Notes under the pieces: model-generated | What the model was told of the DNA's origin: nothing | The model's database searches: none | What the model saw: the letters and a program-made list of their open reading frames with translations, nothing else | Position numbers and translations under genes: made by a program | NCBI GenBank assembly: GCA_964576435.1 | Contig: CAZNUP010000001.1 | Coordinates: 378,259 to 442,258 of the forward strand | From: an uncultured Gammaproteobacteria bacterium | GTDB lineage: Bacteria > Patescibacteriota > Microgenomatia > JAMCZE01 | Reading direction: 5' to 3' | Length of the DNA stretch: 64,000 bases | Shown: one piece after another, positions 21,130 to 47,432 of the stretch | Position numbering within the stretch: the first letter of the stretch is position 1 | How the letters are laid out: every line of letters starts with the position of its first letter

Positions 21130-21483
21130 ATGGCAGACGAAACAACTCTTCCAGAACCAAAATCCGATACATCAGACATTTTGCGAAAAGTCGTGGCAGC
21201 AATTGTGGGTTTGATTGTAATTATTCTCATTGTTCTTGCTGCTAAATGGATTGGTGACAGGATTAGAGAAAGGTTTTTCCCAGGAACAATTACACCTACA
21301 CCAACTCCAGTTGTAACCATAACTCCAATCCCAACTGGCTATATTAGTCCAATGCCAACTAGAGTTCCAAGTTACTCACACATTCCAGCAACAGGAACTG
21401 AAGACTATATATATGTTCTCGTAGGACTCATGGCAATCGGAGGAACTTCCGCTCTAGTTCTTGCAAAAAAGAAAGCTCTATAG
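21130..21483 (+). CDS. Small Pro/Thr-rich surface protein with canonical C-terminal cell-wall-sorting-like signal (IPATG + hydrophobic + KKK)
   Basis: N-terminal TM/signal-anchor. PT linker 'TITPTPTPVVTITPIPTG'. C-terminus 'HIPATGTEDYIYVLVGLMAIGGTSALVLAKKKAL' is an LPXTG-like pentapeptide, then ~17 hydrophobic residues, then a basic tail. Confidence 0.55.
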   Translation: MADETTLPEPKSDTSDILRKVVAAIVGLIVIILIVLAAKWIGDRIRERFFPGTITPTPTPVVTITPIPTGYISPMPTRVPSYSHIPATGTEDYIYVLVGLMAIGGTSALVLAKKKAL

Positions 21484-21498
21484 TATCTTCCTTGACGT

Positions 21499-21909
21499 AT
21501 GTTTCTTGCCGAAAGTACTGTCAACACAAATGTAACAAGTAATGTTAATTCCTCACAAACTTCAACGGGTGGTTCTTCCTCTCATACATCTATAACAACT
21601 ACAACAAATGGTGAAACAACACATATTGAAAGTAACGAACAAGGCTCAATTCATGTTGAAACAATAAATGGTGAAACTACTGTTAAAACTAGTCCAGGTA
21701 TGAAAGTGGAAGTTAAAAAAGGTGAAGCAAAAGTTGAAGACAATCTTAAACCCACTCCAAAAGCCAGCAGTTCTCCAGAAGTTAAAGGTGTCGCAACTAT
21801 AAATACTGAAGATGTTAAATCAGAGACAAAAGAGGTAAAACAAAATATTTTAGAACAGATTAAAGAAATGTTTGAAAACTTCTTTAAAAAGCTGCAGTTT
21901 CCTAGTTGA
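21499..21909 (+). CDS. Ser/Thr-rich hypothetical protein (no signal peptide detected)
   Basis: ORF with low-complexity S/T/N composition like its neighbours. Start uncertain. Confidence 0.3.
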   Translation: MFLAESTVNTNVTSNVNSSQTSTGGSSSHTSITTTTNGETTHIESNEQGSIHVETINGETTVKTSPGMKVEVKKGEAKVEDNLKPTPKASSSPEVKGVATINTEDVKSETKEVKQNILEQIKEMFENFFKKLQFPS

Positions 21910-21964
21910 CACATTTAGAATTGGCTTGTATCATTGCGTTTAACTTCTGCCCAAAAGTTTTTTT

Positions 21965-22687
21965 ATGAAAACTCGAAGGGCAACCACTATTACTTTAGAA
22001 ATTCCCCAAAATCCAATTCCTGAAATTCTTTCAATGGTTCAAGACTTTGCTTCTGACACTCAAAGTAAAGGCTCAAACATTATTTCAAATATAAAATCAA
22101 AACTTTCTTCCGGAAGAAACGGAAATAAATTTAAAAACTACCTCCCTATTGTTATTGTTGCCATAGTTGCTCTTGGAGCAATTTTCTTCGTCGGCAAATT
22201 TATAACTTCAGCAATTGCGAACTCACACGCTAATTCAGTAGATAATAGAGTTGAGTTGAAAGGTCCAAGAGCAAAAATGACCGTTAATAAAACTTTTGAA
22301 TTCCCTCTTAAAGATGATAAAGGAAAGACAATCGCCACTCTCAAATTCTTATTAGGTGACGCTGAACTTCGAGACGAAATAATTCTCCAAGGACAAAAAG
22401 CAGTTGCTGTAAAAGGTAGAACTTATTTAATAACCACAATTAAATTAACAAATAGTTCTGACAAATTTATTCAAATGAAAGTCAGAAACTATGTAAGACT
22501 TAATGTCAACGGTAATAAAGATGAATGGTTGGCTGCTGAAATTCATAACGATCCAGTTGAAGTGCAACCAGAATCCACAAAACAAACTCGTCTTGGATTT
22601 CCAATTAACGACACAGATAAAGATTTAATCCTAAGAGTTGGTGATCTTGAAGGCAAGAAAGAATCCATTCCCCTAAACTTTAACTAA
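21965..22687 (+). CDS. Membrane-anchored hypothetical protein with extracytoplasmic beta-rich (DUF4352-like) domain
   Basis: Cytoplasmic N-terminus, TM 'LPIVIVAIVALGAIFFVGKFI', then a ~150-aa domain 'LKGPRAKMTVNKTFEF...YLITTIKLTN'. Confidence 0.5.
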   Translation: MKTRRATTITLEIPQNPIPEILSMVQDFASDTQSKGSNIISNIKSKLSSGRNGNKFKNYLPIVIVAIVALGAIFFVGKFITSAIANSHANSVDNRVELKGPRAKMTVNKTFEFPLKDDKGKTIATLKFLLGDAELRDEIILQGQKAVAVKGRTYLITTIKLTNSSDKFIQMKVRNYVRLNVNGNKDEWLAAEIHNDPVEVQPESTKQTRLGFPINDTDKDLILRVGDLEGKKESIPLNFN

Positions 22688-22691
22688 GTTT

Positions 22692-22877
22692 ATGCAAGGA
22701 CAATCTAAAAAACCATCATTAAACGACGAAATACAAGCCGCTCTCCAAAATATCCGTTTCGGTAGTGTTGAAATCTACATTCAAGATGGAGTTGTCACCC
22801 AAGTAACTGCAAGAAATATTAAGAAGACAAAATTTGAAATTTCTAAAGATTTAAAACCGGCCAAGAGTAAAAGTTAG
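22692..22877 (+). CDS. DUF2292/YezD-like small protein
   Basis: 'IRFGSVEIYIQDGVVTQVTARNIKKTKF' matches the YezD (DUF2292) core 'YGSV.I.IQDGKVVQIE'. Confidence 0.5.
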   Translation: MQGQSKKPSLNDEIQAALQNIRFGSVEIYIQDGVVTQVTARNIKKTKFEISKDLKPAKSKS

Positions 22878-22970
22878 AGGATAGATTTGACATATTGACA
22901 AAGCTATTTTCAAATTGTAAAACTGTTTACAAGTAAATATAGTATAAATATTTAGGACGTCTACCGCAAA

Positions 22971-23040
22971 CGGAGACTTCTTTATCTGAAATTCATAGAA
23001 AATCTATTGAAGATTCAGGTCAGGAAGCCTCCGTTTTTTT
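22971..23040 (+). promoter_or_regulatory. Long leader hairpin plus U7 (intrinsic-terminator-like) upstream of the repeat-protein gene; attenuator or upstream-operon terminator
   Basis: CGGAGACTTC...(43-nt loop with internal pairing)...GAAGCCTCCG followed by TTTTTTT. Candidate promoter TTGACA-17-TAAAAC lies upstream at about 22900-22934. A CCCGATCGGG palindrome sits at 23064-23073. Confidence 0.4.
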
Positions 23041-23128
23041 ATTTTATTTGTCGCGAAGATCAACCCGATCGGGAGTGACAAATAAAAGGACGGAAAGGAA
23101 AAAAATTGAAAGGGGGTGAATCGATAAA

Positions 23129-24358
23129 ATGACAAACTTTAAAAAACAATTAGTAGGTGCTCTCGCAACCGGCCTCTTGGTCGCCAATATTTTGGCCCCA
23201 GTCGCCTATGCAGAAGATGGAATCCATCTTGAAGTGAGTGGAAATGGAGCAAAATCCGATTCCACAATCAACGCAGCTGTTTCAAACACTACTGCCGTTA
23301 CCCAAAGTAACGTAGCTAATGTCACAAACAATGTTGATTCAACATCCAATAGCGGAGGAAACAAGGCTAGTGGAAACACTTCTGGAGACGTTTTAATCAA
23401 GACTGGTAAAGCTACATCTAATGTAGAAGTCGCCAATAACTTGAACACAAACGTAGCCAATGTTGATTGCTGCGGAGCCACTTCCACTAACGTTACTATT
23501 TCTGGAAATGGAAAGAAATCAGATAATGATGTAAACCTTTCACAGACCAATGCTAACGTTGTTGCACAAACAAATGAAGCAAACGTCTTAAACAACGTTG
23601 ATTCAAAAGCAAACAGTGGAAAAAACAAAGCTAATGCAAACACTGGAGGCGATGTCACAGTTGTGACAGGAGCAGCCACTGCAGGAGCCGATGTTTCCAC
23701 ACATGCTAATACTAATGTTGCAAACATTGGTGGAGGACATATGGGAGATGAAGGAGAAGTTTCCTTGATCATCTCAGGAAATGGAGAGAAGTCAGACAAT
23801 GATATTGCCTTGGCACTCTCTAACGCTAATTCACTCATTCAAGCAAACGAAGCTAACGTCACTAATGACGTTGATGCAAAAGCTAATTCAGGATACAACA
23901 AAGCCAACGCTAATACCGGAGGCGAAGTTGCAATCTTAACTGGAAAAGCAGACGCAATGGTCGGAGTTGACAATGATGTTAACTTTAACTGGGCAGACGT
24001 TGATTGCGGATGTGTTACCGATTTGAAAGCTAAAGTAGCTGGAAATGGCAAAGAATCTGACAATGATATCAATGCCTCACTCGTTAATACTAAGTTAGCT
24101 GAACAAGTGAATGCAGCAGCTCTACAAAATAATGTAGACGCAAAAGCCAAATCTGGTTGGAATAAAGCAAACGATAACACCGGATCAGTTGAAGGAAGTG
24201 ATCCAGCTATCTTAACTGGGGATTCGTCCTCAAACACAGAAGTTGGAAATTCCAGTAACTGGAACGTGTTTGGAAATGGAGAACTTACTCCTTTGCCAGA
24301 ATTCGACTTTGATTTTGACTGGAGTACATTCATGTTCTGGATGGTTCAACATTCATAA
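23129..24358 (+). CDS. Secreted tandem-repeat surface protein (novel 'SGNG...NSGxNKxNxNTGG' repeat family, ~89-aa period, Cys-pair junction motifs)
   Basis: Strong SD (AAGGGGGTG). Signal peptide 'LLVANILAPVAYA'. Four repeats start at aa 37, 125, 216 and 305, each with '[IV]SGNGxKSD.....N.VD..ANSG.NKANANTGG[DE]V.[IV].TG'. Cys motifs 'VDCCGATS' and 'VDCGCVTD' sit at repeat junctions. Confidence 0.75.
   Translation: MTNFKKQLVGALATGLLVANILAPVAYAEDGIHLEVSGNGAKSDSTINAAVSNTTAVTQSNVANVTNNVDSTSNSGGNKASGNTSGDVLIKTGKATSNVEVANNLNTNVANVDCCGATSTNVTISGNGKKSDNDVNLSQTNANVVAQTNEANVLNNVDSKANSGKNKANANTGGDVTVVTGAATAGADVSTHANTNVANIGGGHMGDEGEVSLIISGNGEKSDNDIALALSNANSLIQANEANVTNDVDAKANSGYNKANANTGGEVAILTGKADAMVGVDNDVNFNWADVDCGCVTDLKAKVAGNGKESDNDINASLVNTKLAEQVNAAALQNNVDAKAKSGWNKANDNTGSVEGSDPAILTGDSSSNTEVGNSSNWNVFGNGELTPLPEFDFDFDWSTFMFWMVQHS
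23225..24280 (+). repeat. Four ~267-nt coding tandem repeats inside the 23129-24358 gene
   Basis: Periodicity of the SGNG/NTGG motif blocks in the translated protein. The nucleotide level is diverged (not identical copies). Confidence 0.6.
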
Positions 24359-24372
24359 CTGAAATCTCAAAC

Positions 24373-24418
24373 TTCGTAAGGGTCTTTGCTTGAGCACTTC
24401 AGGCAAAGCCCCTACGAA
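24373..24418 (+). terminator. Strong stem-loop (16-17 bp near-perfect inverted repeat) downstream of repeat-protein gene; candidate terminator without U-tract
   Basis: TTCGTAAGGGTCTTTGC - 13-nt loop - GCAAAGCCCCTACGAA. Starts 15 nt after the stop codon at 24358. Confidence 0.4.
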
Positions 24419-24447
24419 ATAGAGAAAAATAAAATTAAAACTAGATA

Positions 24448-26679
24448 ATGAAAAATCTTAAAAATAAAATTACAAAATCGCTAAGCATACTATTAATTGT
24501 GATTCTCTTTTTGGGTCACATGTCTCCCCTTGCTGTTTTAGCAGAAGAAGGAACACCAACGCCAGAGCCCACTCAACAAGTTCAACAAGAAGCAACACCA
24601 ACTCCTCAACCTGAAGCAACTCAAATACCAGCACCTGTTGCAACACCAGTTGCACCAACCACGCCAACAGCACCAGTAACTCCTGTAGCACCAACTAACC
24701 CAAATCCAGTTGTTGTAGCACCAGTAACTCCAGTGGCTCCAGTAGCGCCAAGTAATTCAAATAATAATTCAAATAACGAAGAATCTAAAAATAAAGAGGC
24801 CAATAAAGAGAAGAAAAGATCAGAAAATAAATCCAACAACAATAGTGGTGGAAACGTTGGTGATACAACTGTAAATACTGGTAGCACAAATACTAACGGA
24901 GCAATCGTAACAGATGCTAATTCAAATCTTGCTGGCACAAACGGAGGATCAACAAATGGAGTAAGTATCGTAAATGCAAATAATGGCCAGGCTTCAGACA
25001 ATAGTGGTTCAGCGTCAGTTGTTAACAACGACAATACCAATCAAAACAACAATGCCAACGTTTCAAACGGACTTAGTCTAAGTTCTGATTCCGGAAGTAA
25101 CAAAAGTAATGGCAATGTTGGTGATACAACTATTAAAACTGGAGATTCAAATGTTTCAGGAACAATAATCACAGCAGTGAACACAAATGTTGACGGCGTC
25201 ATGGTCTCAGAATTTAATATCGCTGATGATCACGTTGGAGACATCGTCTTAGACTTTGGTGCAAATTGTGTCTCTGGTTGTGGTAACAGCAACGTATCAG
25301 CAAACAACACAGGTAATGGAGCAAATTCAAATAATACGGCCAATTCTGATTTAACAAACAACACAAACACTTTCCAAAATAATGACGCCAATGTTGGTAA
25401 TGACCTTGTCTTGTCAGCAAATAGTGGGAACAACAAGGCTAACGCAAATACTGGTGGAGATAGTTCCATTCAAACTGGCGACGCGAATGTTTCAGGAAAC
25501 GTTCTGACAATGGCTAACAACAATTTTGCAGGGAATGTCGTTTACGGGGTAGTCAACATTTATGGAGATCTTCATGGAGATATCGTTTTCCCAGAAGAAC
25601 AAATGACAGGTTGTTGTGGAACTGGAAGTCTCGCTGCAAACAATATTGGCAATGGATCCAATTCAACAAATTCTGCTAATGGAAGTGCAACCAACAATAA
25701 CAACACGACACAAAACAATAACGCCAATATTACAAACACACTTGATCTAGATGCAGTTACTGGAGACAATAAATTGAATGCAAATACTGGTGGTAATTCC
25801 GAAGTCACAACAGGCAACACCAATGTTCAAGCCAATGTCTTGAATGTCGCCAACAATAATCTTGATGGCGGTAATATGTGGCTTGTCTTAATTAACGACG
25901 CAGGTAAATGGATTGGTAAATTAGTTGGAGCCGATGGAAATATGGCTGCTTCTGGTGGAACAGTTCTAACAGTTGACGAAAATGGTCAGATAACTGCTTC
26001 CAATAACGGAAATGGTAGCGGTTCAACAAATTCAACAGATGGTAGTGTCACAAACAACAACAATACGACTCAAAACAATAATGCCAACATAAATAACAAT
26101 GTTAACCTCTCAGCAAATACAGGTGGCAATTCAACAAGTTATAACACTGGGGGAGATAATGCAATTCAAACTGGAGATGCCAATATCATTGTTAACATGG
26201 TTAACTTTGTAAACAATAATATTACTGGCAATGGAAAATTGTTTGTCACAGTCGTTAACGTATTTGGTAGTTGGACTGGTGATTTCTTAACACCAGGACA
26301 AAAGAAAGAATCAAAGCCAGCTGCTCAAACTGTAGCTAACTCACAAAGTTCACAGTCAACAAATAATAGTAATCAAACACAGCAAGAACAAAGTTCGGTA
26401 CTTGGTTGGACACAGACTAATACACAAACAACACAAACTGTAAAAACAACTCAAACAAATCCTGCTGGCGGAGTACTCTCTTTCTTTGCTGGAGCACAAA
26501 ATAAAACTAACACTTTGAAAGAATCTGTTGGAGTTAAAGATGCAAAAATCACTAAATCTTCTAAATCAAAAGTAAAAATAAACTTGGCATGGTTGATTTT
26601 GGCTTTGCCATTTGCTATACTCTTCCTGTTAAGGAAAAGAGTGGCTCAAGTAGTCACCAAAATGACCGCTCTTCTCTAA
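24448..26679 (+). CDS. Large secreted N/S/T-rich repeat protein of the same 'NKxNxNTGG' family, Pro/Thr-rich N-terminal linker, C-terminal TM + basic tail
   Basis: Signal peptide 'ILLIVILFLGHMSPLAVLA'. 'PTPEPTQQ...TPVAPTTPTAPVTPVAPT' linker. At least 5 repeats 'SxNKxN.NTGGDSSIQTGDANVSGNVLTMANNNFAGN'. Cys motifs 'GANCVSGCG' and 'MTGCCGTG'. C-terminus 'INLAWLILALPFAILFLLRKRVA'. Confidence 0.75.
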   Translation: MKNLKNKITKSLSILLIVILFLGHMSPLAVLAEEGTPTPEPTQQVQQEATPTPQPEATQIPAPVATPVAPTTPTAPVTPVAPTNPNPVVVAPVTPVAPVAPSNSNNNSNNEESKNKEANKEKKRSENKSNNNSGGNVGDTTVNTGSTNTNGAIVTDANSNLAGTNGGSTNGVSIVNANNGQASDNSGSASVVNNDNTNQNNNANVSNGLSLSSDSGSNKSNGNVGDTTIKTGDSNVSGTIITAVNTNVDGVMVSEFNIADDHVGDIVLDFGANCVSGCGNSNVSANNTGNGANSNNTANSDLTNNTNTFQNNDANVGNDLVLSANSGNNKANANTGGDSSIQTGDANVSGNVLTMANNNFAGNVVYGVVNIYGDLHGDIVFPEEQMTGCCGTGSLAANNIGNGSNSTNSANGSATNNNNTTQNNNANITNTLDLDAVTGDNKLNANTGGNSEVTTGNTNVQANVLNVANNNLDGGNMWLVLINDAGKWIGKLVGADGNMAASGGTVLTVDENGQITASNNGNGSGSTNSTDGSVTNNNNTTQNNNANINNNVNLSANTGGNSTSYNTGGDNAIQTGDANIIVNMVNFVNNNITGNGKLFVTVVNVFGSWTGDFLTPGQKKESKPAAQTVANSQSSQSTNNSNQTQQEQSSVLGWTQTNTQTTQTVKTTQTNPAGGVLSFFAGAQNKTNTLKESVGVKDAKITKSSKSKVKINLAWLILALPFAILFLLRKRVAQVVTKMTALL

Positions 26680-26703
26680 CACTCCTGCCCCCAATTTATT
26701 TTA

Positions 26704-27273
26704 GTGCAAAAAACTCTTTTTACAATTTTTGCGTTCCTCTTAGTGTTAGCTCTTGTCAAAACCCAAGTACAAGCAATCGACTACAGTGTTGAAAATAATG
26801 GTGCCAACTCCCAAAACAACGTAAATGTTCAAAACACCAACAATAACTCCAATAGCCAAAGTAATACCACAAATATCACTAACAATGTAAATGCTAATGC
26901 AAATACAGGTGGCAACAGTGCTTCAGGTAATTCTGGAGACAGTACTATTATTACTGGCGATTCAACAGTTAGTATTTCCATAACTAATAATGGAAACGGC
27001 AACAATACTCAAACTGGTTGCTGTAAAACTCCTACGCCAACAAAAACACCAACTAAGGTTCCAACTCCAGATCCAACAGGCACTCCAAACTCAGGAGGAA
27101 GTAATGGAGGATCGTCTGGTGGAAGTAGTTCTGGTGGTAGTTCAGGAAGTTCTTCAAGTCCACAAGTCCTGGGCCTTTCTAAGACCGCAGGCACTCAAAA
27201 AGTTGACGTCGCATTCTATTTAGCTGGAATCTTATGCCTAGGTCTCGCCGGAAAAAGACTTCTAAAAAGTTAA
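26704..27273 (+). CDS. Small secreted repeat-family protein with PT linker and C-terminal 'LGLSKTAG'-TM-basic sorting-signal-like tail
   Basis: Signal peptide 'AFLLVLALVKTQVQA'. One 'ANANTGGNSASGNSGDSTIITGDSTV' repeat. 'TGCCKTPTPTKTPTKVPTPDPTGTP' linker. C-terminus 'VLGLSKTAGTQKVDVAFYLAGILCLGLAGKRLLKS'. Confidence 0.6.
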   Translation: MQKTLFTIFAFLLVLALVKTQVQAIDYSVENNGANSQNNVNVQNTNNNSNSQSNTTNITNNVNANANTGGNSASGNSGDSTIITGDSTVSISITNNGNGNNTQTGCCKTPTPTKTPTKVPTPDPTGTPNSGGSNGGSSGGSSSGGSSGSSSSPQVLGLSKTAGTQKVDVAFYLAGILCLGLAGKRLLKS

Positions 27274-27803
27274 CCCTCAAGGACTATCTGCCCATTCTCT
27301 TAATAGTAATTGGCCTAGTTCTATTAATGGTTCCCCTAGCAACGAAAAACATTGCTTCTGCTCAATCTAACCCTATAAAGATAAAATCAGAACTTCTTTC
27401 CAAAAAAGACACTAGGGAAGTCCCAATCAGGATTTTAGTCCCTAAATATAAAGTTGATCTTCCCATAATTGAAGCAAAAGTAGTAAATGGGTTGTGGGAA
27501 CTTTCAGAAACAACCGCCTCCCATGGTGTTGGATCGGCTAATCCCGGTGACAAAGGTAATATCGTTGTTTTTGCTCATGCAAGGGACGATCTATTTGGTC
27601 CAATTAGATATATTCAAAAAGATGACGAGATTTATCTTCTAACTAAAGATAAATGGCACAAATACAAAGTTGAGGAAACAAAGCTTGTTGACCCGAGTGA
27701 AGTGAAAGTAATTGCTCCCACCAAAAAAGAAACCCTGACTTTGTACACTTGTTCAGGATTTCTTGATTCCAAGAGGCTTATTGTTGTTGCAAAGCCATCT
27801 TAA
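27234..27803 (+). CDS. Sortase family transpeptidase (N-terminal signal-anchor; catalytic His/Cys/Arg present)
   Basis: Basic N-terminus plus TM. 'NIVVFAHARDD' (His), 'LTLYTCSG' (TLxTC Cys), 'RLIVVA' (Arg). Overlaps the upstream gene by 40 nt. Confidence 0.8.
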   Translation: MPRSRRKKTSKKLTLKDYLPILLIVIGLVLLMVPLATKNIASAQSNPIKIKSELLSKKDTREVPIRILVPKYKVDLPIIEAKVVNGLWELSETTASHGVGSANPGDKGNIVVFAHARDDLFGPIRYIQKDDEIYLLTKDKWHKYKVEETKLVDPSEVKVIAPTKKETLTLYTCSGFLDSKRLIVVAKPS

Positions 27804-27810
27804 TTGCTTG

Positions 27811-27838
27811 CCCCGGGGTCAGATTGCTGTTCCCGGGA
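27811..27838. terminator. GC-rich hairpin between convergent genes (sortase and repeat protein); candidate bidirectional terminator
   Basis: CCCCGGGG - 12 nt - TCCCGGGA gives a 7-bp G/C stem. A U-rich run follows on the + strand (AUCAGCUUUUAAGUUU). Confidence 0.4.
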
Positions 27839-27851
27839 TCAGCTTTTAAGT

Positions 27852-28457
27852 TTAGAGCACTGTATTGCCCTCTCCAGTTACTGTAGTTTCAACACTAGAA
27901 TCAGCTGGGCCAGTTACGACTCCATTTGTTCCATTGGTGTTGTCTTTCACAGTGTTTCCGCCGGTATTAGCGACTGAGGAAACTGCTGTAACAGCAACGG
28001 TGTTACTCTTTTGTTTCACGACGTTTGTAGTGCCGGAAACGACTGTCACTGTGTTAACGGATTTTTTACCGTTTCCGGTAATGCTAACGTCAGTAGAATC
28101 GCCACATCCACAAGATGGAGCAACTGCTTCATTGGATCCACCCATAACAGTAGTTGTAACTGTTGATGTGGAAGCGCCAGTTGTAACTCCATTTGTTCCA
28201 CCAGTGTTTCCATTAACTTTGTTGTTTCCACTGTTAGCTACAGAAGAGACGAATGTTAATGCCATGGTGTTACTTGTTTGCTTGGTGATATTTTTATTTG
28301 CAGAGATAGCAGTCACTGTGTTAACGGATTGTTTTCCATTTCCACTAATGTTAACTGTGTTTGCTGCAAATGCTGCGGATGCTGTGGTAGCGACCAAAAG
28401 GCCAATTGCCAAAGCTCCTGTTGTTCCTTTCAAAATTAGTTTGTTCATATTATTCAC
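27852..28457 (-). CDS. Secreted repeat-family protein (two ~85-aa SGNG/NTGG repeats separated by 'PSCGCGDSTD' Cys motif)
   Basis: Signal peptide 'ALAIGLLVATTASAAFA'. Repeats 'ISGNGKQSVNTVT...ANSGNNKVNGNTGGTNGVTTG' and 'ITGNGKKSVNTVT...ANTGGNTVKDNTNGTNGVVTG'. The + strand ORF over the same DNA translates to P/V/T nonsense. Confidence 0.65.
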   Translation of the reverse strand: MNNMNKLILKGTTGALAIGLLVATTASAAFAANTVNISGNGKQSVNTVTAISANKNITKQTSNTMALTFVSSVANSGNNKVNGNTGGTNGVTTGASTSTVTTTVMGGSNEAVAPSCGCGDSTDVSITGNGKKSVNTVTVVSGTTNVVKQKSNTVAVTAVSSVANTGGNTVKDNTNGTNGVVTGPADSSVETTVTGEGNTVL

Positions 28458-28466
28458 CCCCTTTCA

Positions 28467-29504
28467 TCAAAGTTCACATTTAATTCGAGTTTCTGCTTCA
28501 CATGTGTCTTTTCCATTTCCTCCGTTAGCTTTGTCAGTTCCTGTTTCCCCAAATAACTTGTCATCACCGTTTCCGCCGTCAATGATGTCGTTTCCCCCGC
28601 CGGCATGAACTTCATCCCTGTCATTACCAACGTCAATTGTGTCAACTCCTGATCCTGAAACTATTAGATCATTTCCATTTCCACCAATAATGTTGTTGTT
28701 CCCGTCCCCTGCAGAGATATTGTCATCCTCATTTCCCCCATCGATTGTGTCGTTGCCACTTTCTGCCGTGATAACATCTTTCCCATTTCCCCCATCAAGT
28801 TTGTTATTTCCCATTCCCCCAACGATACAGTCATCATTATTTCCTCCATCAATTGTGTCGTTTCCTTCAAGACCAATTATCAAGTCTTTTTTATTTGTTC
28901 CATTAAGTTTGTCATTACCTGAGGTGCCCATTATTGTTGAAGTGTATTGGCTGATATCCCCACAAGCTGCGGGTAGAGAAAACGCGACACCGATTTGTAA
29001 ATCAAAAACTATTTTTGTGTTTTGAAATTCATTTCCAGCATTTGGATCAAAATCTAATTTAAATGTATATTGTTTAGTGGCTCCTGAATTTAAATTGCCT
29101 AAGGCCATTCCGTCTGGTCCATTGCTTTCACTAAAAAATTGACTAAGTGTTTTCGGGCCATAAACCGTAGTAGCTCCTTGTGTGATTGTTATTTCTAAAA
29201 CTCCAGACAAACTAGCTGTTTCGGAAGTTAAAAGACCCCGAACTGCGATGGGTTTAAGGTCTGGTGATGAATTTGTGACATTAACATTCCTATTTTCCGA
29301 TTGTCCCGGTGCAGCATTAGCTATATTAAATAGTGGTGTTCCAGGTGGAACTCCCCAGTCAACTGTTAGGTCCCCAACAGCGTAAGCGGTAGGGGATTTG
29401 AAAATATTCATAACTCCCCCACTAGCCCAAACTAATATTGCTATTACTCCTAAAACAATTCCAATTCTGATAAATCTTTTTGTCATATATTTAGCATGAA
29501 CCAT
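28467..29504 (-). CDS. TasA/camelysin-like N-terminal domain fused to RTX-type (GGxGxD) calcium-binding beta-roll repeats; SipW-cognate-like signal peptide
   Basis: Signal region 'WASGGVMNIFKSPTAYAVGDLTV' (compare TasA 'GGGTWAAFNDIKSKDATFASGTLDL'). 'NIANAAPGQSE...NVTN' and '...FDLQIGVAF' are TasA-like. The C-terminal half carries at least 10 nonapeptide-like repeats 'GGNGNDLIVSG', 'GGNGDDKLFG', 'GGMGNNKLDGGNGKD'. Confidence 0.7.
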   Translation of the reverse strand: MVHAKYMTKRFIRIGIVLGVIAILVWASGGVMNIFKSPTAYAVGDLTVDWGVPPGTPLFNIANAAPGQSENRNVNVTNSSPDLKPIAVRGLLTSETASLSGVLEITITQGATTVYGPKTLSQFFSESNGPDGMALGNLNSGATKQYTFKLDFDPNAGNEFQNTKIVFDLQIGVAFSLPAACGDISQYTSTIMGTSGNDKLNGTNKKDLIIGLEGNDTIDGGNNDDCIVGGMGNNKLDGGNGKDVITAESGNDTIDGGNEDDNISAGDGNNNIIGGNGNDLIVSGSGVDTIDVGNDRDEVHAGGGNDIIDGGNGDDKLFGETGTDKANGGNGKDTCEAETRIKCEL

Positions 29505-30126
29505 TATTTGTTAACCCTTTTGTTGACGTGTTGCAGTTTTTGAATGAACCGGTACCATCGATATTTCGACCTATTGAAACATTTGCACTGCTTGAGGCGT
29601 AAGTTTGCGCGCTGACTGTAGCTCCTAAATTATTTTCTAAATTTAATCCATCTCCGGCATTGTTAAGCCAACCCGCGCTATGGTTAAAAGCAAGTATTTG
29701 ACCTGGTGTAATTGTCCCAGTTAGCGCTAAGTCATCAGCTCTAGTGTTATTTGCGTCAAAAATCCCCCAGCCTGTCAAATTTATTGAGGTGTTACCAATG
29801 TTAATTATTTCTACCCATTCATCTCCAATGCTCGGTTGAGTCATAAACTCATTAATTTGCAGATTAGTGATTGGTGCGGGAGTTGGGATTGGGGATATTG
29901 TCGGCGTGGGGGTCAATGACGGTGTTGCAGTTGGAGTAGTGGCTTCAATTGGTGTTACAGTTGGTGTAATTTCTTGTGGTGGAGTTTGCGGAAAAAGGCT
30001 AGCTGCAGTAAACAAATTTCCGCTATTAGAATTAGTGCTGGAAAATAATGCATATGTGACACGATAAGATATTAATGTCAAAAACACTAAAATCATTCCT
30101 ATTAATAAAAAGTGTTGTTGTTTCAT
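29491..30126 (-). CDS. Lamin-tail-domain (LTD) protein with SipW-cognate-class signal peptide and PT-rich linker
   Basis: 'YALFSSTNSNSGNLFTAASL' matches the SipW-cognate signal pattern (AxFxD/S...N.FTAG.L). 'TPTVTPIEATTPTATPSLTPTPTISPIPTPAPIT' linker. 'INEFMTQPSIGDEWVEIINIGNTSINLTGWGIFD' is LTD-like (PF00932). Confidence 0.7.
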   Translation of the reverse strand: MKQQHFLLIGMILVFLTLISYRVTYALFSSTNSNSGNLFTAASLFPQTPPQEITPTVTPIEATTPTATPSLTPTPTISPIPTPAPITNLQINEFMTQPSIGDEWVEIINIGNTSINLTGWGIFDANNTRADDLALTGTITPGQILAFNHSAGWLNNAGDGLNLENNLGATVSAQTYASSSANVSIGRNIDGTGSFKNCNTSTKGLTNNGSC

Positions 30127-30671
30127 GGTGTAGCTGCAATCTCATTTCTAACTTTTTTCTCAATTTGGACTTCCATCTCCTTTTTAATATTCCAAATTTC
30201 AAAGCCCATGAAAATAAAAGCTGGAATGGCGATCGCAATAATAAATCCTGTTGGAGTTTTTAAATTTTGAGACAAATTTCCAATATAAGGTATAGTCGCA
30301 ATCCACTTACCCTTTATGGAACTGCTATTCACTGGATCCAAGTCAGCTGCATTATTAGCGTCTCCTTTTGTTTTAAAACTCACGATATCGTTTGTCATAA
30401 TGGTCTGGTTAATTCTGTGAGCGATTGTCCTTTTGTTTATGTCTTCAAAAACAACTAAGTCGTTTAATTCATAGTTTTTTTGAGGGCTAGTAAAAATTAC
30501 AGACCCAACAGGTACAGAAGGCTCCATGCTTCCCGAGGCTATTGCAAAGCTCCGAATGCCACCTAGCACATTAGAATTTGAAGTGATAACGGTTGCCCCG
30601 ACCAAAATAAGGATCAAAGCCAATGTTGATTTAAGAAAGATTCCTAAGCCAGTTAGTATTTTTTTGTTCAT
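30123..30671 (-). CDS. sipW: SipW-type (ER/archaeal-type) signal peptidase I with C-terminal TM
   Basis: N-terminal TM. 'SGSMEPSVPVGSVIF' (the catalytic-Ser SGSMxP box of S26B/SipW-type peptidases). Second TM near the C-terminus 'FIIAIAIPAFIFMGF'. ATGA overlap with the downstream LTD gene. Confidence 0.8.
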   Translation of the reverse strand: MNKKILTGLGIFLKSTLALILILVGATVITSNSNVLGGIRSFAIASGSMEPSVPVGSVIFTSPQKNYELNDLVVFEDINKRTIAHRINQTIMTNDIVSFKTKGDANNAADLDPVNSSSIKGKWIATIPYIGNLSQNLKTPTGFIIAIAIPAFIFMGFEIWNIKKEMEVQIEKKVRNEIAATP

Positions 30672-30706
30672 CTAATTTCAAATATATAATCGTATGTTCC
30701 CGGGTG

Positions 30707-30723
30707 GCGGGGCCATCCCCGCC
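30707..30723 (-). other. Intercistronic GC hairpin between tasA-like and sipW (no U-tract): possible partial terminator or processing site
   Basis: GGCGGGG-CCAU-CCCCGCC 7-bp G/C stem, plus an adjacent CCCGGG palindrome, inside the 58-nt gap. Confidence 0.35.
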
Positions 30724-30729
30724 AAAGTT

Positions 30730-31281
30730 TTACTGTGACGCGGTGAAAGCCATATTGAATGCTACACTTTGTCCTTGAAACGAATCGTCAGTTGTTGGAT
30801 CAAAAGTTAGTTGAGCTGCTAAGTTGTATGAACCTCCTGCGGGTAATGTTGCTCCTGAAAGAACAAAATTAGCCCAAGTTGGGTCGTCCAATGCTCCACT
30901 GCCTAGTGATGTGTCGCCTGCGTCAAAAACGCCATTGTCATTTGCGTCTTTAAAGAGCATTAGATTGAGTTTTGCTGCCAATCCAGGGTTTGCACCCCCA
31001 ATGGCAATCGAACCCACCTTAACAAAATTTGCATCAACAGTTCCTGTATTTTGCAAAGTCAGTTTTTGGGAAAAGACATCGCCAGGTGCTGCTGATGGAA
31101 TGGTAAATACGCCAGTTGATGGGGAGACCTGAGTGTTTATTCTCAAGACCATATTACCGGCTCCAAAAGTATTTCCAGTGTTGGTATTAGTTGAACTAAA
31201 TGCTGCAAAAGCACTACCTCCAAGCATGGCTAAGCAAGCCACGATTGAAACTGCACTAATTGCTATTTTTCGATTTAACAT
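30730..31281 (-). CDS. TasA/camelysin-family protein with SipW-cognate-class signal peptide
   Basis: Strong SD GGAGGTGAG. 'MLGGSAFAAFSSTNTNTGNTFGAGNMVL' signal (TIGR04088-like). 'IPSAAPGDVFSQKLTLQNTGTVDA' (compare TasA NLKPGDKLTKDFQFENNG). C-terminal '...VAFNMAFTASQ'. Confidence 0.75.
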   Translation of the reverse strand: MLNRKIAISAVSIVACLAMLGGSAFAAFSSTNTNTGNTFGAGNMVLRINTQVSPSTGVFTIPSAAPGDVFSQKLTLQNTGTVDANFVKVGSIAIGGANPGLAAKLNLMLFKDANDNGVFDAGDTSLGSGALDDPTWANFVLSGATLPAGGSYNLAAQLTFDPTTDDSFQGQSVAFNMAFTASQ

Positions 31282-31305
31282 AAATTTTTCTCACCTCCTT
31301 CACAC

Positions 31306-31342
31306 AAAAAACCAGCTATCTGGGCAGATAAAGCTGGTTTTT
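31306..31342 (-). promoter_or_regulatory. Long near-perfect hairpin with A5/U5 flanks in the 5' leader of the tasA-like operon (candidate attenuator/operator)
   Basis: AAAAACCAGCTATCTG-GGC-CAGATAAAGCTGGTTTTT. Lies between a candidate minus-strand promoter (TTGCCA-17-TAATAA, about 31352-31380) and the SD. The 'TGGGCAGA' core recurs at about 31391. Confidence 0.4.
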
Positions 31343-31562
31343 CATTAGATTTTATTAATTTTTTAAAATTGAATTGGCAAACTTTCATTTGGGCAGAATT
31401 TCCAAATAAACTTTTTGTGTTTGCCTCCGATGGCGGTCAGCAAGAATAACCATATCAAGACCAAGTCCATGACTGTCAACAAGACAAATTACATCGAAAC
31501 TATGTCATGGTTTTTTGCCATTTTCACTGAATAAAAATCAATTTTTGAAGCGGGAAAAATAT

Positions 31563-31576
31563 GCTAGAATAAATTA
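31563..31576 (+). promoter_or_regulatory. Extended -10 (TGcTAGAAT) placed 6 nt upstream of ATG: candidate leaderless promoter for 31577 gene
   Basis: TGCTAGAAT-aaatta-ATG. No Shine-Dalgarno sequence. Confidence 0.4.
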
Positions 31577-32512
31577 ATGAAACCTCACGAACATCTTCTT
31601 CACATCTTTACTCCAAGGCATACTAATAACCACAGAGCCAAGATTCTTCATTTTTCTGGATTAACTTTCTGCATAGCACTTTTGCTAGTTTTTCAATTAG
31701 CTTTAACCTTTGTTCACGCAGTTGATCCCGAGGTTTTAGGATATGCATCTAATATCAATGTCTCAGATCTTTTAAGTCAAACAAATTCGAGACGCGCACA
31801 AGCAGGTGTTGGTGCACTAGCTTTAAATGATCAATTAACAAACGCCGCTTCAGGTAAAGGTGCTGATATGTTTCAAAACCAATATTGGGCGCATGTATCC
31901 CCATCTGGAAAAGAACCATGGGCTTTCATAACTGGAGCTGGTTATAACTACGTTTTCGCTGGTGAAAATTTAGCAAGAGATTTCGGGGATTCTAAAGGTG
32001 TTGTTGATGCTTGGATGAATTCACCTTCACATAAAGAAAATCTTTTGAACGAAAGGTTTAAAGATGTCGGTTTTGCCATTGTTAATGGTAAATATGGAGA
32101 TTCTGAAACAACGCTTGTAGTACAAATGTTTGGTTCAAAGGCGAGTGATGCTCCATCAATTTCTGAAGTAGCAGCTGTTAATACTCCAATCCCATCAGAA
32201 ACTCCAACATTAACACCGACCACAACCATAACCCCTGTCGCTCCAGTAAATCCTGCCAACGGACAACCTCCAACGGGGGTAGTTCTTAGGACAGAGACTC
32301 AGATTACCAATCCAAAATTTGATATCTTATCTCTCTCAAAAACTCTAGCCTTTGGAATAACAATGTTACTTCTAGCAGCATTAGTTATTGACGCAGTTCT
32401 AATCTACAAAAGAAAAACTGTCCGTATTTCTGGTCACAACATTGCTCACATGTTGATTTTAATTACAGTGCTAGTTGCAGTAACCTTAATTGGAAGGGGG
32501 ATAATTATTTAA
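31577..32512 (+). CDS. CAP/SCP (YkwD-like) domain secreted protein with PT linker and C-terminal 'LSLSKTLA'-TM-basic tail plus second TM
   Basis: N-terminal TM/signal. 'QYWAHVSPSG...WMNSPSHKENLLNERFKDVGFAIV' is a CAP/PR-1 signature. 'IPSETPTLTPTTTITPVAPVNP' linker. C-terminus 'ILSLSKTLAFGITMLLLAALVIDAVLIYKRKT'. Confidence 0.7.
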   Translation: MKPHEHLLHIFTPRHTNNHRAKILHFSGLTFCIALLLVFQLALTFVHAVDPEVLGYASNINVSDLLSQTNSRRAQAGVGALALNDQLTNAASGKGADMFQNQYWAHVSPSGKEPWAFITGAGYNYVFAGENLARDFGDSKGVVDAWMNSPSHKENLLNERFKDVGFAIVNGKYGDSETTLVVQMFGSKASDAPSISEVAAVNTPIPSETPTLTPTTTITPVAPVNPANGQPPTGVVLRTETQITNPKFDILSLSKTLAFGITMLLLAALVIDAVLIYKRKTVRISGHNIAHMLILITVLVAVTLIGRGIII

Positions 32513-32778
32513 TGAATACCAATCACACAGTTCGTCACGGTTTTGATTTCTTCCTTCTGGTTTTAATTTTATGTTTAGGTTTAGGAGGACTACTCTATTT
32601 TAATTTCAACAAAGCTGCACAGATAAGTATTGTAATTATTATGTCTGCTATGTACATCTTTTGGGGAATTTATCACCACCATCATGATGGAAATCTGACA
32701 TTTAAAACACTATTTGAGTATATTGGAATTGCTTCTTTAGTTGCAGCAGTGCTAATTGTAATGGTTACAAGGATTTAA
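32512..32778 (+). CDS. Small 2-3 TM membrane protein, His-rich loop (HHHHD), hypothetical
   Basis: ORF overlapping the upstream stop. Hydrophobic helices. No homology recognised. Confidence 0.35.
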   Translation: MNTNHTVRHGFDFFLLVLILCLGLGGLLYFNFNKAAQISIVIIMSAMYIFWGIYHHHHDGNLTFKTLFEYIGIASLVAAVLIVMVTRI

Positions 32779-33439: not shown

Positions 33440-34195
33440 ATGACCAAGCCCAAAATAGTGATTGCCATGCCCACCTATAATGAGGCGGAAAGCATTGGGA
33501 AAATGCTGGATGTGCTAACTAAAGATATTTTTCCAAAAATCAAAGACCATGATGTCCAGGTTTTAGTAATTGATGGGCACTCTCCTGATGGAACCTGGAA
33601 AATAGTTGCCGAAAAAGCCAAAAAGAATAAATCAGTAGTTCTCCTAGATGAAGGTAAAAAAAGCGGCCTAGGTGCTGCTTATACTAATGGTTTTAACTAC
33701 GCCATAAAAACTCTTAAAGCTGATGCAATTATGGAAATGGATTCCGATTTCCAACATGATCCACAAGACATCCCAAGATTCATTGCAGAATTTGATAAAG
33801 GCCATGACTATATCTTGGGATCAAGGTATATCAAAGGTGGTTCAATTCCAAAAGAATGGGGATTAGATCGTAAATTCTTATCAGTTGTTGGTAACCTTGT
33901 TTATCAATTTGGTCTTTTGATGTTTGATATCCATGATTTTACAACTGGTTATCGCCTAGCAAGGGTAAAGGATTATTTAGATTCAATAAACTTTGAAAAA
34001 GTTTTTTCTAAATCTTTTGCCTATAAAACTCGTCTGCTTTATGAAATGAAAAAGAGAGGTGCCAAGATTGAAGAAATCCCAATTAAGTTTGGAGTAAGAG
34101 GTGCGGGAGATAGTAAGATGACTACAAATACATTAACTGAAAGCGTCAAAATTATCGCAGTGATTTGGGCAGATCGTCTAGGATTGTCAAAATGA
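33440..34195 (+). CDS. GT2 polyprenyl-phosphate sugar synthase (Dpm1/GtrB/ArnC-like), soluble form
   Basis: 'IVIAMPTYNEAESI', 'VIDGHSPDGT', 'MDSDFQHDP' DXD-type GT-A motifs of dolichol-phosphate mannose synthase-like enzymes. Confidence 0.85.
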   Translation: MTKPKIVIAMPTYNEAESIGKMLDVLTKDIFPKIKDHDVQVLVIDGHSPDGTWKIVAEKAKKNKSVVLLDEGKKSGLGAAYTNGFNYAIKTLKADAIMEMDSDFQHDPQDIPRFIAEFDKGHDYILGSRYIKGGSIPKEWGLDRKFLSVVGNLVYQFGLLMFDIHDFTTGYRLARVKDYLDSINFEKVFSKSFAYKTRLLYEMKKRGAKIEEIPIKFGVRGAGDSKMTTNTLTESVKIIAVIWADRLGLSK

Positions 34196-34938
34196 AAAAA
34201 CTTGTCATAGTTGCCCCTACTTTCAATGAAGAAGAAAACATCGAGGACTTCATCACAAACACCCTAGCTCAGCAAATAAGACTAAACAATGTGGATTTGG
34301 AACTTCTTATTTCAGATAGTATTTCCAATGACAAAACAAAAGAGATTGTTCAAAAAATGCAAAAAAAAGAAAAGAAACTCCACTTTTTAGAGTCTAAAAC
34401 TCCAGGTCCTGGAAAGTTGGGTGCCGGTCTAATTGAGGGTCTAGATTATGCGACTTCAAATCTTAAAGCAGATTACCTGATCACTATGGAGGCAGATTTA
34501 ACAAATGACGTCAATAAAATTCCTGAGATTGCAGATCTACTAAGTAAGTTTGAAGTGGTAATCTGTAGCAGATATATAAATGGTGGCCGTGTTGTTAATT
34601 GGTCGCTGTGGAGGAAGTTTTTAAGCTACTTTGCAAACTTAATTTTGCGAACTCTTTCCGGAGGCTCTAAATTGCATGAATTTACCAACCTTTACAGGGG
34701 CTTCCATAAAGATGTCTGGCAAAAGCTCCGTCCGGAGTTAATAGCTCAAACTGATTGGCTTTTTGTTCCGGCATTCGTTTTTGCAGTAATTCAGGGCAAG
34801 TTCAAAACGGTTGAGATTCCCTATACGTTTTATGATCGTTTTGGTGGCAGATCTAAGATGCAAACTCCCTCATATACAAAAAACTTGCTTATATTTGCGC
34901 TAAAATATAGACTAAACCGTCATGGAGCATTTTCTTAA
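34192..34938 (+). CDS. GT2 polyprenyl-phosphate sugar synthase paralogue (Dpm1-like)
   Basis: Start chosen at the ATG that overlaps the upstream TGA (ATGA). 'LVIVAPTFNEEENI', 'MEADLTND'. Confidence 0.8.
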   Translation: MKKLVIVAPTFNEEENIEDFITNTLAQQIRLNNVDLELLISDSISNDKTKEIVQKMQKKEKKLHFLESKTPGPGKLGAGLIEGLDYATSNLKADYLITMEADLTNDVNKIPEIADLLSKFEVVICSRYINGGRVVNWSLWRKFLSYFANLILRTLSGGSKLHEFTNLYRGFHKDVWQKLRPELIAQTDWLFVPAFVFAVIQGKFKTVEIPYTFYDRFGGRSKMQTPSYTKNLLIFALKYRLNRHGAFS

Positions 34939-35422
34939 ATTCTTAGTAGTAGGTTCAATTGGATTTCTAATTAACACCACGGTGTTAATTTTTGGCGTTC
35001 GCAAGTTCAATCTTAAGCCATCAATTGCTGGTCCAATTGGTGCCGAACTTGCGATTATCTCCAACTTTATTTTGAATAATTTTTGGACCTTTTCAGATAA
35101 AACAATCACTTCCTGGTCAGTTCTCCCCCAAAAATTTATTGCCTTTAATATTCTTTCCCTAGGGTCTGCTGTAATTCAATTCATTTTCTTAAAAGCTGGA
35201 GAAATCATCTTTGGACTAGAAAAGTATAAAAAACCTGTTTTAACAGTTATTCCAGTCAAAAAGATACCAGTAGTTAACAGTATTGTCGAAGCGCTTTTAA
35301 AGATCAAAATATTCAATAAACTCTCTCAAAAAATGACTGTATATTTTGTTTTCTATATTGCTGGTGTTGGTGTTGGTTTAATTGTAAATTTCTTTATCTA
35401 TAGCCTAATAATTTGGAGATGA
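34922..35422 (+). CDS. GtrA-family small membrane protein (polyprenyl-P-sugar translocation component)
   Basis: 'KFLVVGSIGFLINTTVLIF...ISNFILNNFWTF' GtrA (PF04138) pattern, 4 TM. Confidence 0.75.
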   Translation: MEHFLKFLVVGSIGFLINTTVLIFGVRKFNLKPSIAGPIGAELAIISNFILNNFWTFSDKTITSWSVLPQKFIAFNILSLGSAVIQFIFLKAGEIIFGLEKYKKPVLTVIPVKKIPVVNSIVEALLKIKIFNKLSQKMTVYFVFYIAGVGVGLIVNFFIYSLIIWR

Positions 35423-36894: not shown

Positions 36895-37663
36895 TATCTT
36901 TCTATCAGTTGTAATACCTTCTTATAATGAAACCGCGAACTTAAAGCGTGGTGTTCTGGAAGAAGTTTATAACTACCTAAAAGACCAAAAATATACTTGG
37001 GAAGTAATTGTCTCTGATGATGGTTCCCCTGAAGAAGAAAGTAGAAAGCTAGCTAAAGAGTTTTGCGATGGTCATAAGGGATTTAAATTTGTCCAAAATG
37101 AACATGCAGGTAAACCATTTGCTGTTTGGTCAGGAATTCAAAAATCTCAAGGTGAAATAGTCCTTTTCACTGATATGGATCAATCAACCCCAATTTCTCA
37201 AGTTGAGAAGCTTCTTCCAAAATTTGATGCAGGTTATGATGTTGTAATTGGTAGTCGTGGCCTAAAAAGAAATAACGCTTCAGTTTTAAGAAAATTAGCG
37301 TCAGGAACTTTCTCCACCTTTAGAAGAGTAATGCTCTTGAGAAGTATTAGTGACACTCAAGCTGGTTTTAAATCTTTTAAAGCACCAGTGATTAAAGAAA
37401 TATTTCCACTTTTAGAAATAATTAAAAATCACGGATCAAAAAAAGTTGTTGGCTGGACACCAACGTCTTTTGATGTTGAGCTTCTTGTTGCAGCCAAAAG
37501 ACGTGGCTATAAAATTGCTGAAGTCCAAATTGATTGGGAAGATAGAGATGTTTCAACAGGCAAAGCAAGAGGAAATAAGAAGTTTGCCAAAGAGTCCGCT
37601 GATATGATGAAAGAAATCTTCCGCGTAAAGCTAAACGACATTCGCGGTGCTTACAAAAAATGA
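36887..37663 (+). CDS. GT2 polyprenyl-phosphate sugar synthase (Dpm1-like); GTG start proposed
   Basis: The GTG at 36887 gives 'MNNIFLSVVIPSYNETANL'; the ORF-track start at 36713 would overlap the upstream gene by 180 nt. 'SDDGSPEE', 'TDMDQSTP'. Confidence 0.75.
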   Translation: MNNIFLSVVIPSYNETANLKRGVLEEVYNYLKDQKYTWEVIVSDDGSPEEESRKLAKEFCDGHKGFKFVQNEHAGKPFAVWSGIQKSQGEIVLFTDMDQSTPISQVEKLLPKFDAGYDVVIGSRGLKRNNASVLRKLASGTFSTFRRVMLLRSISDTQAGFKSFKAPVIKEIFPLLEIIKNHGSKKVVGWTPTSFDVELLVAAKRRGYKIAEVQIDWEDRDVSTGKARGNKKFAKESADMMKEIFRVKLNDIRGAYKK

Positions 37664-40331: not shown

Positions 40332-40344
40332 GAGATAATCAATT

Positions 40345-46980: not shown

Positions 46981-47432
46981 ACCTCAAAGTTTTTTACTTT
47001 GACATCTTTTACTAACTTTTTACTCTCTTCAAATCTTAAGTTTGTTATCGCCTCATCAATTTCAAACCACCTTACATCCTTTTGAGTTAATTTTTCATTG
47101 TCAGTCAGTTTAACAGTCTCTTTGTTAACCGGTCCACCGGTTGCTAAAAACCAATAAACGGTTTTTTCTCGCAAAATTCCATCAGCTAGCTTAAAGTGAA
47201 ACTTGCTTATGTCGATTTGTTCCATTATTTTTAAATTTTCTATCCCTGTTTCTTCAATAGTTTCTCGGTATGCTGCCTGTTCGGGCGTCTCTCCACTTTC
47301 TACGGTTCCCTTTGGTAACACCCATCCGAAGTCTTTTTTATTCCATTCTTTGTAGATAAGGAGAACGAGTATTTTGTCTTTGTCTTTTCTTAATACGACA
47401 CAACCAGCCGAAATATAGTGTTTGTCCTTCAT
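46977..47432 (-). CDS. NUDIX hydrolase
   Basis: Nudix box 'GTVESGETPEQAAYRETIEETGI'. Stop codon shares the TTAA at 46977-46980 with the convergent gene. Confidence 0.8.
   Translation of the reverse strand: MKDKHYISAGCVVLRKDKDKILVLLIYKEWNKKDFGWVLPKGTVESGETPEQAAYRETIEETGIENLKIMEQIDISKFHFKLADGILREKTVYWFLATGGPVNKETVKLTDNEKLTQKDVRWFEIDEAITNLRFEESKKLVKDVKVKNFEV

Follow-up and report, generated by a model that had tools for sequence, protein, structure and literature searches.

Which proteins are served by the sortase encoded at 27234-27803 of the stretch of DNA analysed here, and by which signal are they marked? The stretch, called the window below, comprises 64 kb of a ~710-kb contig with 37% G+C, and its homologs are found in Gottesman-, Levy-, Woese-, Ames- and Roizmanbacteria, i.e., in the Microgenomates of the candidate phyla radiation (CPR). 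A sortase is reported to be near-ubiquitous in Microgenomates (PMC6744442) and has been noted as present in a genome (PMC7143001); the searchable literature holds generic mentions of the enzyme only and no account of Microgenomates sortase substrates or of their signal. The original prediction for this locus proposed a sortase with several candidate substrates, namely one small protein ending in an IPATG signal and three otherwise unrelated surface proteins joined by a recurrent "LSKT" motif. Our analysis leads to a different picture: we consider it likely that the sortase and the protein encoded directly upstream of it (26704-27273) form a dedicated, co-evolving pair within a conserved Microgenomates surface-protein operon, a pair for which we infer cleavage of the substrate and an acceptor.

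The sortase and the gene that overlaps it

The sortase (27234-27803, + strand, 189 aa) is composed of an N-terminal basic tail, a transmembrane (TM) anchor and a catalytic domain, and it is matched by both Pfam and NCBIfam. Its open reading frame (ORF) scores 87.9 bits against PF04203 (5.8e-25, cutoff 26.6) and 47.5 bits against TIGR01076 (cutoff 39.35). The catalytic residues H115 (27576-27578, in FAHAR), C173 (27750-27752, in LYTC) and R181 (27774-27776, in KRLIV) are invariant in an alignment of 24 sortase homologs, which also conserve the MPRSRRK start. The AlphaFold2 (AF2) model has a mean predicted local distance difference test (pLDDT) score of 81.3 and displays an N-terminal helix (residues 15-43) and a beta core; with this model as the query, Foldseek places solved sortases at the top with E~1e-10, classes A, C and E about equal. 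By model and Foldseek alike, the protein has the eight-stranded beta-barrel and the N-terminal membrane anchor of a sortase, and the earlier claim of a sortase with intact His, Cys and Arg holds on all these counts. PDB sequence matches are spread over the same three classes. None of the class-specific NCBIfam cutoffs is reached by the protein, with 54.5 bits versus 140 for SrtD, 54.5 versus 160 for class E, 52.7 versus 165 for class D, 51.1 versus 160 for class C, and, lower still, 42.6 versus 158 for class GN and 22.2 versus 166 for class F. Because the generic models are passed and no class model comes near its cutoff, we judge 27234-27803 from its sequence to be a genuine sortase whose clade is unclassified, with predicted transpeptidase activity. 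At 50% identity and E<=1e-30 this clade comprises 89 clusters. Since no class-specific cutoff is reached, the specificity of the enzyme is not readable from class membership. A P-I-x-I-D-x-x-L-L segment is conserved between its TM anchor and its catalytic domain, and so is an NG(Y/L)WELSETTASHG loop. In the NCBI record the sortase is called as a protein of 158 aa, apparently a truncation that removes the conserved basic tail together with some of the TM anchor.

The putative cognate substrate encoded immediately upstream (26704-27273, + strand, 189 aa) is built from a signal peptide (MQKTLFTIFAFLLVLALVKTQVQA), one unit of an Asn-rich (N-rich) repeat, a CC pair, a PT-rich linker, a G/S-rich linker and a C-terminal sorting signal. 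The latter is tripartite: the motif VLGLSKTAG (27166-27192, + strand) is followed at 27193-27270 (+ strand) by the spacer TQKVD, the hydrophobic segment VAFYLAGILCLGLAG and the basic tail KRLLKS, and PQVLGLSKTAGTQK is the candidate sortase peptide from this region. The public gene call appears to truncate the substrate, which it starts at 26743 (176 aa), without most of the signal peptide. Motif position counts and architecture were taken over 59 sequences of the substrate family, and their consensus reads V-L-G-L-[S/A]-x-[T/A]-[S/A/G]-[G/S] (V52/I7, L44, G58, L58, S44/A13, x, T52/A7, S40/A9/G9, G35/S22), the K of LSKT being the variable x; below, VLGLSxTSG stands for this signal. G-P-x often precedes the motif and E or D often follows it. 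The tripartite layout is present in 59 of 59 members, with a spacer of 1-10 aa, 11-22 uncharged residues (median 15) and a K/R tail that has at least one K or R among its first 8 residues in every case. Most of the information in the substrate, which is otherwise of low complexity and swaps domains, resides in the motif positions. Its mature part is mostly ~80-140 aa long, is rich in N, G, S, T and P, and as a rule contains just two Cys. At the N-terminus the module differs between substrates: the window and its relatives have a single N-rich repeat unit there, others another module or none. No Lys column is conserved among the substrates; five of the 59 mature parts are devoid of Lys, and many have a single one.

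The linkage of this signal with the sortase was followed in 80 genome loci gathered through the sortase from Gottesman-, Levy-, Woese- and Amesbacteria, upstream sequence being present in 77 of them. At 66 of these 77 loci the motif lies at the end of the gene directly upstream (51 strict, 15 relaxed in the same register), and at 54 of 58 loci this gene and that of the sortase overlap. For the window the overlap amounts to 40 nt (27234-27273) and is out of frame, such that one A-rich stretch encodes both the substrate tail GKRLLKS with its stop and the basic N-terminus of the sortase, MPRSRRKKTSKK. The strict pattern VLGL[SA]xT[SAG][GS] has 50 matches in 381,573 aa, compared with 0.15 expected from shuffles; all 50 are located 37-49 aa from the C-terminus, and all belong to the sortase-adjacent gene. 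In the six frames of the window it appears once only, at 27166. The motif is therefore the tag of a dedicated substrate and does not mark the proteome at large.

The reverse test, in which metagenome contigs were scanned with a degenerate DNA pattern for GPxVLGLSxTSG, returned 46 stretches. About 26 of them, which matched by chance in high-GC DNA and had no ORF context, were discarded, and the 20 genuine stretches have low GC, an ORF, a TM segment and a basic tail. This sortase lies immediately downstream in 18 of the 20, a truncated sortase N-terminus in one, and the remaining contig ends 161 nt past the gene; all 19 informative loci (19/19) thus adjoin a sortase. Tag and sortase are thus equally strong predictors of each other. 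Moreover, six of the most divergent sortases (142-151 bits against the profile hidden Markov model, HMM) pair with VLGxSTLGxTG or LASTG instead, and signal and enzyme therefore co-vary. What these loci show directly is the identity of the two genes, a motif that is conserved and linked exclusively to this sortase family, and the co-variation of signal and enzyme.

Existing models see little of this signal. TIGR01167, the LPXTG-anchor model, does not match the VLGLSKTAG tail of the window and gives a relative's VLGLSxTSG tail 10.9 bits over the TM segment only (cutoff 15.9), and an NCBIfam scan of isolated tails at E<=10 retrieved no dedicated C-terminal sorting-domain model for VLGLSxTSG. Measured against LPXTG proteins, 26704-27273 differs in model match and pentapeptide (L-S-K-T-A-G) and agrees in tripartite layout and sortase linkage.

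The "LSKT" strings and the IPATG protein

The strings on which the three-protein motif had been built do exist: LLLSKKTAN in 2076-3251, LGLSKTAGT in 26704-27273 and LSLSKTLAF in 31577-32512, each ahead of a hydrophobic segment. The protein at 2076-3251 (+ strand, 391 aa) is secreted and has a plain C-terminal TM anchor. Its 11 aligned orthologs keep LNLL[LI], after which the residues vary (SKKTAND, PEKK-EE, SNAIEED, IKPKEEN and others), SKKT being found in two of the 12 sequences; with LLLSKKTAN unconserved, the protein was rejected as a sortase substrate. The protein at 31577-32512 (+ strand) is a CAP/YkwD-domain membrane protein (PF00188, 8e-18), present at an offset of +1705 in 34 of 80 loci. 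Behind its LSLSKT lie TM1, a loop (KRK...SGH..AH) and another TM, with which the protein ends. Among 32 orthologs the LSLSKT segment is variable (SPFESTR, FKLTKT, TSLPRL and others), and what they retain is a hairpin, TM1-Asp...RRKxxRxSG(H/R)xFAH-TM2-GxIL, with no basic tail. It was likewise rejected, on account of the unconserved motif, the two TM segments and a G-x-I-L end lacking a basic tail. Both proteins are without the V-L-G-L core and the T-[SAG]-[GS] end, and both are ordinary membrane-anchored proteins.

The string itself is common enough. LSK(K)T is found 12 times in 402,027 aa (the window plus the 80 related loci). The window has four copies in non-coding frames and as many in real ones, including one in the interior of the 3566-5602 protein. 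Being of low information and occurring internally and in non-coding frames, its recurrence in three proteins is therefore not above chance. It is thus extremely improbable that L(L/S/G)LSK(K)T is a sorting motif shared by the three proteins and cut by this sortase or another system: the presence of the three strings, each ahead of a hydrophobic segment, speaks for it, whereas the segment fails to be conserved in either the 11 or the 32 orthologs, the CAP protein lacks the required tail, and the K is the freely varying position of the real motif. What survives of the original prediction is that the strings precede hydrophobic segments, although the supposed TM-plus-K/R ending does not apply to the CAP protein, and that a non-canonical signal is indeed present, in 26704-27273, where it has to be redefined as VLGL[SA]xT[SAG][GS] and restricted to one gene family.

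The IPATG protein is a different case. This small PT-rich protein (21130-21483, + strand, 117 aa) has a conserved N-terminal TM, an IPATG signal (21382-21396), a second TM and the tail KKKAL, and it scores 22.9 against PF00746 (cutoff 20) and 25.2-27 against TIGR01167 (cutoff 15.9). I-P-x-T-G is invariant in the window protein and its 8 orthologs, which also keep the hydrophobic segment and the basic tail. The sorting signal is accordingly as canonical as had been predicted, and the broader proposal of more than one plausible substrate for the sortase stands, the two being 26704-27273 and this protein. The N-terminal TM helix (RKIVAAVVGLIVIILIVLAAKWIGDRVRERFFPG) is invariant in the 8 orthologs as well, and the linker is ~45 aa long and PT-rich. 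Helix, linker and sorting signal make up the whole protein; if both ends were used, the protein would be a covalent membrane-to-wall tether. Orthologs of the small IPxTG protein are found in close relatives only, and canonical xPxTG proteins within 10 kb of the sortases are confined to loci L008, L016 and L081 and the window.

Which enzyme would process IPATG? We lean toward 27234-27803 handling both the VLGLSKTAG and the IPATG signal, because it is the only sortase in the 64-kb window and because at L081 an IPNTG homolog of the small protein lies directly downstream of a sortase of the 27234-27803 family, with no paralog nearby. Processing by another sortase paralog, encoded outside the window, has a smaller yet real chance of being correct. 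Divergent sortase paralogs are indeed encoded at L008 (3677-4288), L009 (3662-4219), L011 (3557-4099), L013 (7740-8402), L016 (5625-6281, - strand) and L069 (11226-11816), and several of them are syntenic with the position of the window's IPATG gene. The proteins beside them bear LPATG, LATTG, FAPTG, FAATG, LPDTG plus LSSKTG, and LASTG signals, so each sortase there is paired with its own signal. Set against this are the single sortase of the window and the paralog-free arrangement at L081.

Proposed processing and its alternatives

Established sortase chemistry (PMC8225981) suggests how the pair may work. The 26704-27273 protein would be exported by Sec, and its hydrophobic segment and K/R tail would keep it in the membrane, where VLGLSKTAG could be presented to the membrane-anchored sortase made from the next, overlapping gene. 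By analogy with characterised sortases, the thiolate of Cys173 would attack the bond after the conserved Thr (LSKT/AG) to give an acyl-enzyme, which the amine of a cell-wall precursor would resolve, leaving the N/G/S/T/P-rich stalk protein covalently fixed to the wall. The small IPATG protein would be a second substrate, of canonical type. Cleavage, scissile bond, acceptor and biological role of the sortase-substrate pair are proposed here on the strength of that analogy.

Sortases of "class GN/marine" are accompanied by an adjacent target protein (TIGR03784). In Staphylococcus aureus, SrtB and IsdC (NPQTN) form an operon-encoded dedicated pair (PMC8225981). As in both of these systems, one sortase is linked here to one substrate with a deviant signal that would be unrecognisable to a housekeeping enzyme; unlike them, the window sortase belongs to a different clade, as its class GN score indicates, the motif chemistry differs, and the pairing is conserved across a superphylum-level lineage. 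The class E enzymes SrtE1/E2 of Streptomyces coelicolor recognise LAXTG signals and anchor the long chaplins ChpA-C (PMC5148588, PMC8225981). They resemble the present system in having a residue other than proline at position 2 (13 of 59 substrates here have Ala), in the single-TM, housekeeping-type enzyme and in a small surface-protein substrate of low complexity that may seed a larger assembly; the class E model is also the joint top class match of the window sortase, yet far below its cutoff (54.5 versus 160). In contrast to LAXTG, position 2 is here mostly Ser, an S/A residue stands between Thr and G, a V-L-G prefix is obligatory, and the genes of enzyme and substrate overlap as a dedicated pair. 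Class D SrtC of Bacillus anthracis uses LPNTA signals on BasH/BasI (PMC8225981). It shares with the window the Ala after Thr (LSKT-A-G) and the specialisation for very few substrates, and the "LPxTATN-specific" SrtD model (NF058671) is a top class match of the window sortase (1.1e-14) but again stays well short (54.5 versus 140); the differences are the absence of Pro at position 2, a VLG prefix without counterpart, and a CPR host that does not sporulate. With canonical LPXTG signals (PF00746/TIGR01167), of which the window's IPATG protein is a member, the VLGLSxTSG tails have the layout of motif, hydrophobic segment and basic tail in common, yet they escape the model. The tag is novel in its Ser at position 2, its T-[S/A]-G ending and its obligatory VLG prefix, and it is a lineage-specific elaboration of the LAXTG/LPXTA signal type.

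Several observations weigh against a dedicated pair that works in this way. The standard anchor model is blind to the tails, and the sortase reaches no class cutoff. The presumed P1 residue, Thr, is Ala in 7 of 59 orthologs (12%), which is unusual among sortase substrates, and the scissile bond is therefore uncertain. For the substrate, AF2 run from the alignment of the window's 11 repeat units yielded no confident fold (pLDDT 49.7). The reverse scan covered the GP-prefixed, mostly Levybacteria-like subset, and, the window being 64 kb, further VLGLSxTSG proteins or a second, IPATG-serving sortase are possible elsewhere in the genome. Some of these points would suit a reading in which VLGLSxTSG is an uncleaved juxtamembrane interaction motif and the true substrates are IPATG or LPXTG proteins elsewhere in the genome: TIGR01167 detects the IPATG tail and misses the VLGLSxTSG tails, Thr gives way to Ala in that 12% of orthologs, and VLG also precedes plain TM anchors without xxTG. 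We nevertheless regard this as very unlikely. The VLGLSxTSG gene is almost always present and translationally coupled to the sortase, signal type co-varies with sortase divergence, and canonical xPxTG is near-absent within 10 kb of the sortases; because the IPxTG protein is limited to close relatives, it offers no account of the clade-wide pairing.

The sortase could also be a class C-like polymerase that joins copies of the substrate, perhaps together with N-rich repeat proteins, into a covalent surface fibre. Such a role would agree with an operon that holds three paralogous repeat proteins and with Foldseek matches to pilus-specific class C sortases as well as to class A, and the conserved P-I-x-I-D-x-x-L-L segment might conceivably be lid-like. 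Pilin-type polymerisation is, however, down-weighted because the substrates conserve no Lys, some having none at all in the mature part, and they show no pilin motif either. Their N-terminal domain is variable or absent among orthologs, the sortase is without the C-terminal TM typical of class C, and the other repeat proteins have no sorting signal. On balance a polymerase appears unlikely, and the dedicated pair, with attachment of single substrates to the wall, remains our preferred reading.

The operon, its neighbours and the V-L-G element

The pair is embedded in a conserved gene order, which runs from a 240-aa TM protein through a DUF2292 protein, a four-repeat protein, a 743-aa repeat protein, the substrate and the sortase to, further on, the CAP protein and an 88-aa membrane protein. 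The single-TM protein (21965-22687, + strand, 240 aa) recurs in 41 of the 80 loci at an offset of -5454 from the sortase start, and the DUF2292/YezD-like protein (22692-22877, + strand, 61 aa; PF10055, 4e-10) in 49 at -4704. They are followed by a secreted protein of 409 aa with four ~88-aa N-rich repeats and no anchor (23129-24358, + strand; 50 of 80 loci, offset -4224) and by an N-rich repeat protein of 743 aa (24448-26679, + strand) that begins with a signal peptide and ends in a plain TM anchor, KINLAWLILALPF...RKR. Homologs of the latter protein recur at 58 of the 80 loci, with -2853 as their median offset from the sortase start; its INLAWLLL tail is conserved, and it contains no sortase motif. 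Alignment of the repeats identifies a further secreted paralog, of 201 aa and with two N-rich repeat copies, on the other side of the sortase (27852-28457, - strand). Altogether the ~88-115-aa Asn-rich repeat is present in 11 units, distributed over 23129-24358, 24448-26679, 26704-27273 and 27852-28457. Its pattern is SGNGxxSxN...QxNxAxVxNxV...ANSGxNKAxxNTGG...TG...N; ten of its positions never vary, the unit ends bear Cys pairs (CC, CGC), and no Pfam or NCBIfam family matches it. Downstream, the CAP gene is always followed by a gene for a membrane protein of ~85 aa (88 aa in the window) with a WGxxHH motif (31577-32778 region); the cluster conserves both, the CAP protein in 34 and the WGxxHH protein in 30 of the 80 loci.

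Other surface-related genes surround the operon. On the - strand, 28467-31281 constitutes a second specialised processing module beside the sortase, with an archaeal/SipW-type signal peptidase I (30123-30671), a camelysin/TasA-like protein (30730-31281, PF12389), a lamin-tail-domain protein (29491-30126) and an RTX calcium-binding-repeat protein (28467-29504). The camelysin/TasA-like and lamin-tail proteins share an N-terminal ...A(A/L)FSSTN(T/S)N(T/S)GN(T/L)F, reminiscent of SipW-dependent signal peptides. Further downstream, 33440-50651 is a glycosylation array of two family 2 glycosyltransferases (GT2), at least three PMT/PMT_2 membrane proteins (GT-C, protein-O-mannosyltransferase-like), a YfhO-like protein and several unassigned polytopic paralogs, enzymes that could glycosylate S/T/P-rich surface proteins or wall polymers. 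Directly upstream of 2076-3251, 878-2056 encodes a secreted protein that combines a PcsB-like coiled coil with a C39-like peptidase domain, and in the 3566-5602 protein a holin-superfamily-IV-like four-TM N-terminus is fused to a type I phosphodiesterase domain.

The V-L-G element extends beyond the substrate family. V-L-G with polar residues (VLGAST, VLGATS, VLGETS and others) is general upstream of Microgenomates C-terminal anchors (loci L004-L082 and the window), as in SSVLGWTQTN of 24448-26679 and GIVLAAAK of 2076-3251. Of 22 xxxTG-type signals, 18 have it no more than 15 aa away (e.g., VLGASTELPATG, VLGTASFAPTG and VLGASTLGATG). In unrelated proteins, the 60 aa ahead of plain C-terminal TM anchors show a 5.6-fold enrichment of the element, and it is often duplicated (VLGASTGPQVLGLSTTSG). 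As a tentative extension, sortase signals of Microgenomates, perhaps of the wider CPR, might be bipartite, with V-L-G as a second determinant that may sit 0-6 residues before an L-x-x-T-G-like element, and the operon might build a core wall-attached surface structure. If so, the stalk protein would be the covalent base for the assembly of the repeat proteins, much as long chaplins anchor chaplin fibres.

The analysis corrects a false generalisation, that of "LSKT" as a proteome-wide motif, and makes the correct annotation of a conserved operon possible in hundreds of genomes. A sortase/tag pair of such unusual specificity could be orthogonal to LPXTG systems in protein engineering. Above all, the substrate and its 9-residue tag provide a testable handle on how uncultured, ultra-small and probably host-attached bacteria build their surface.

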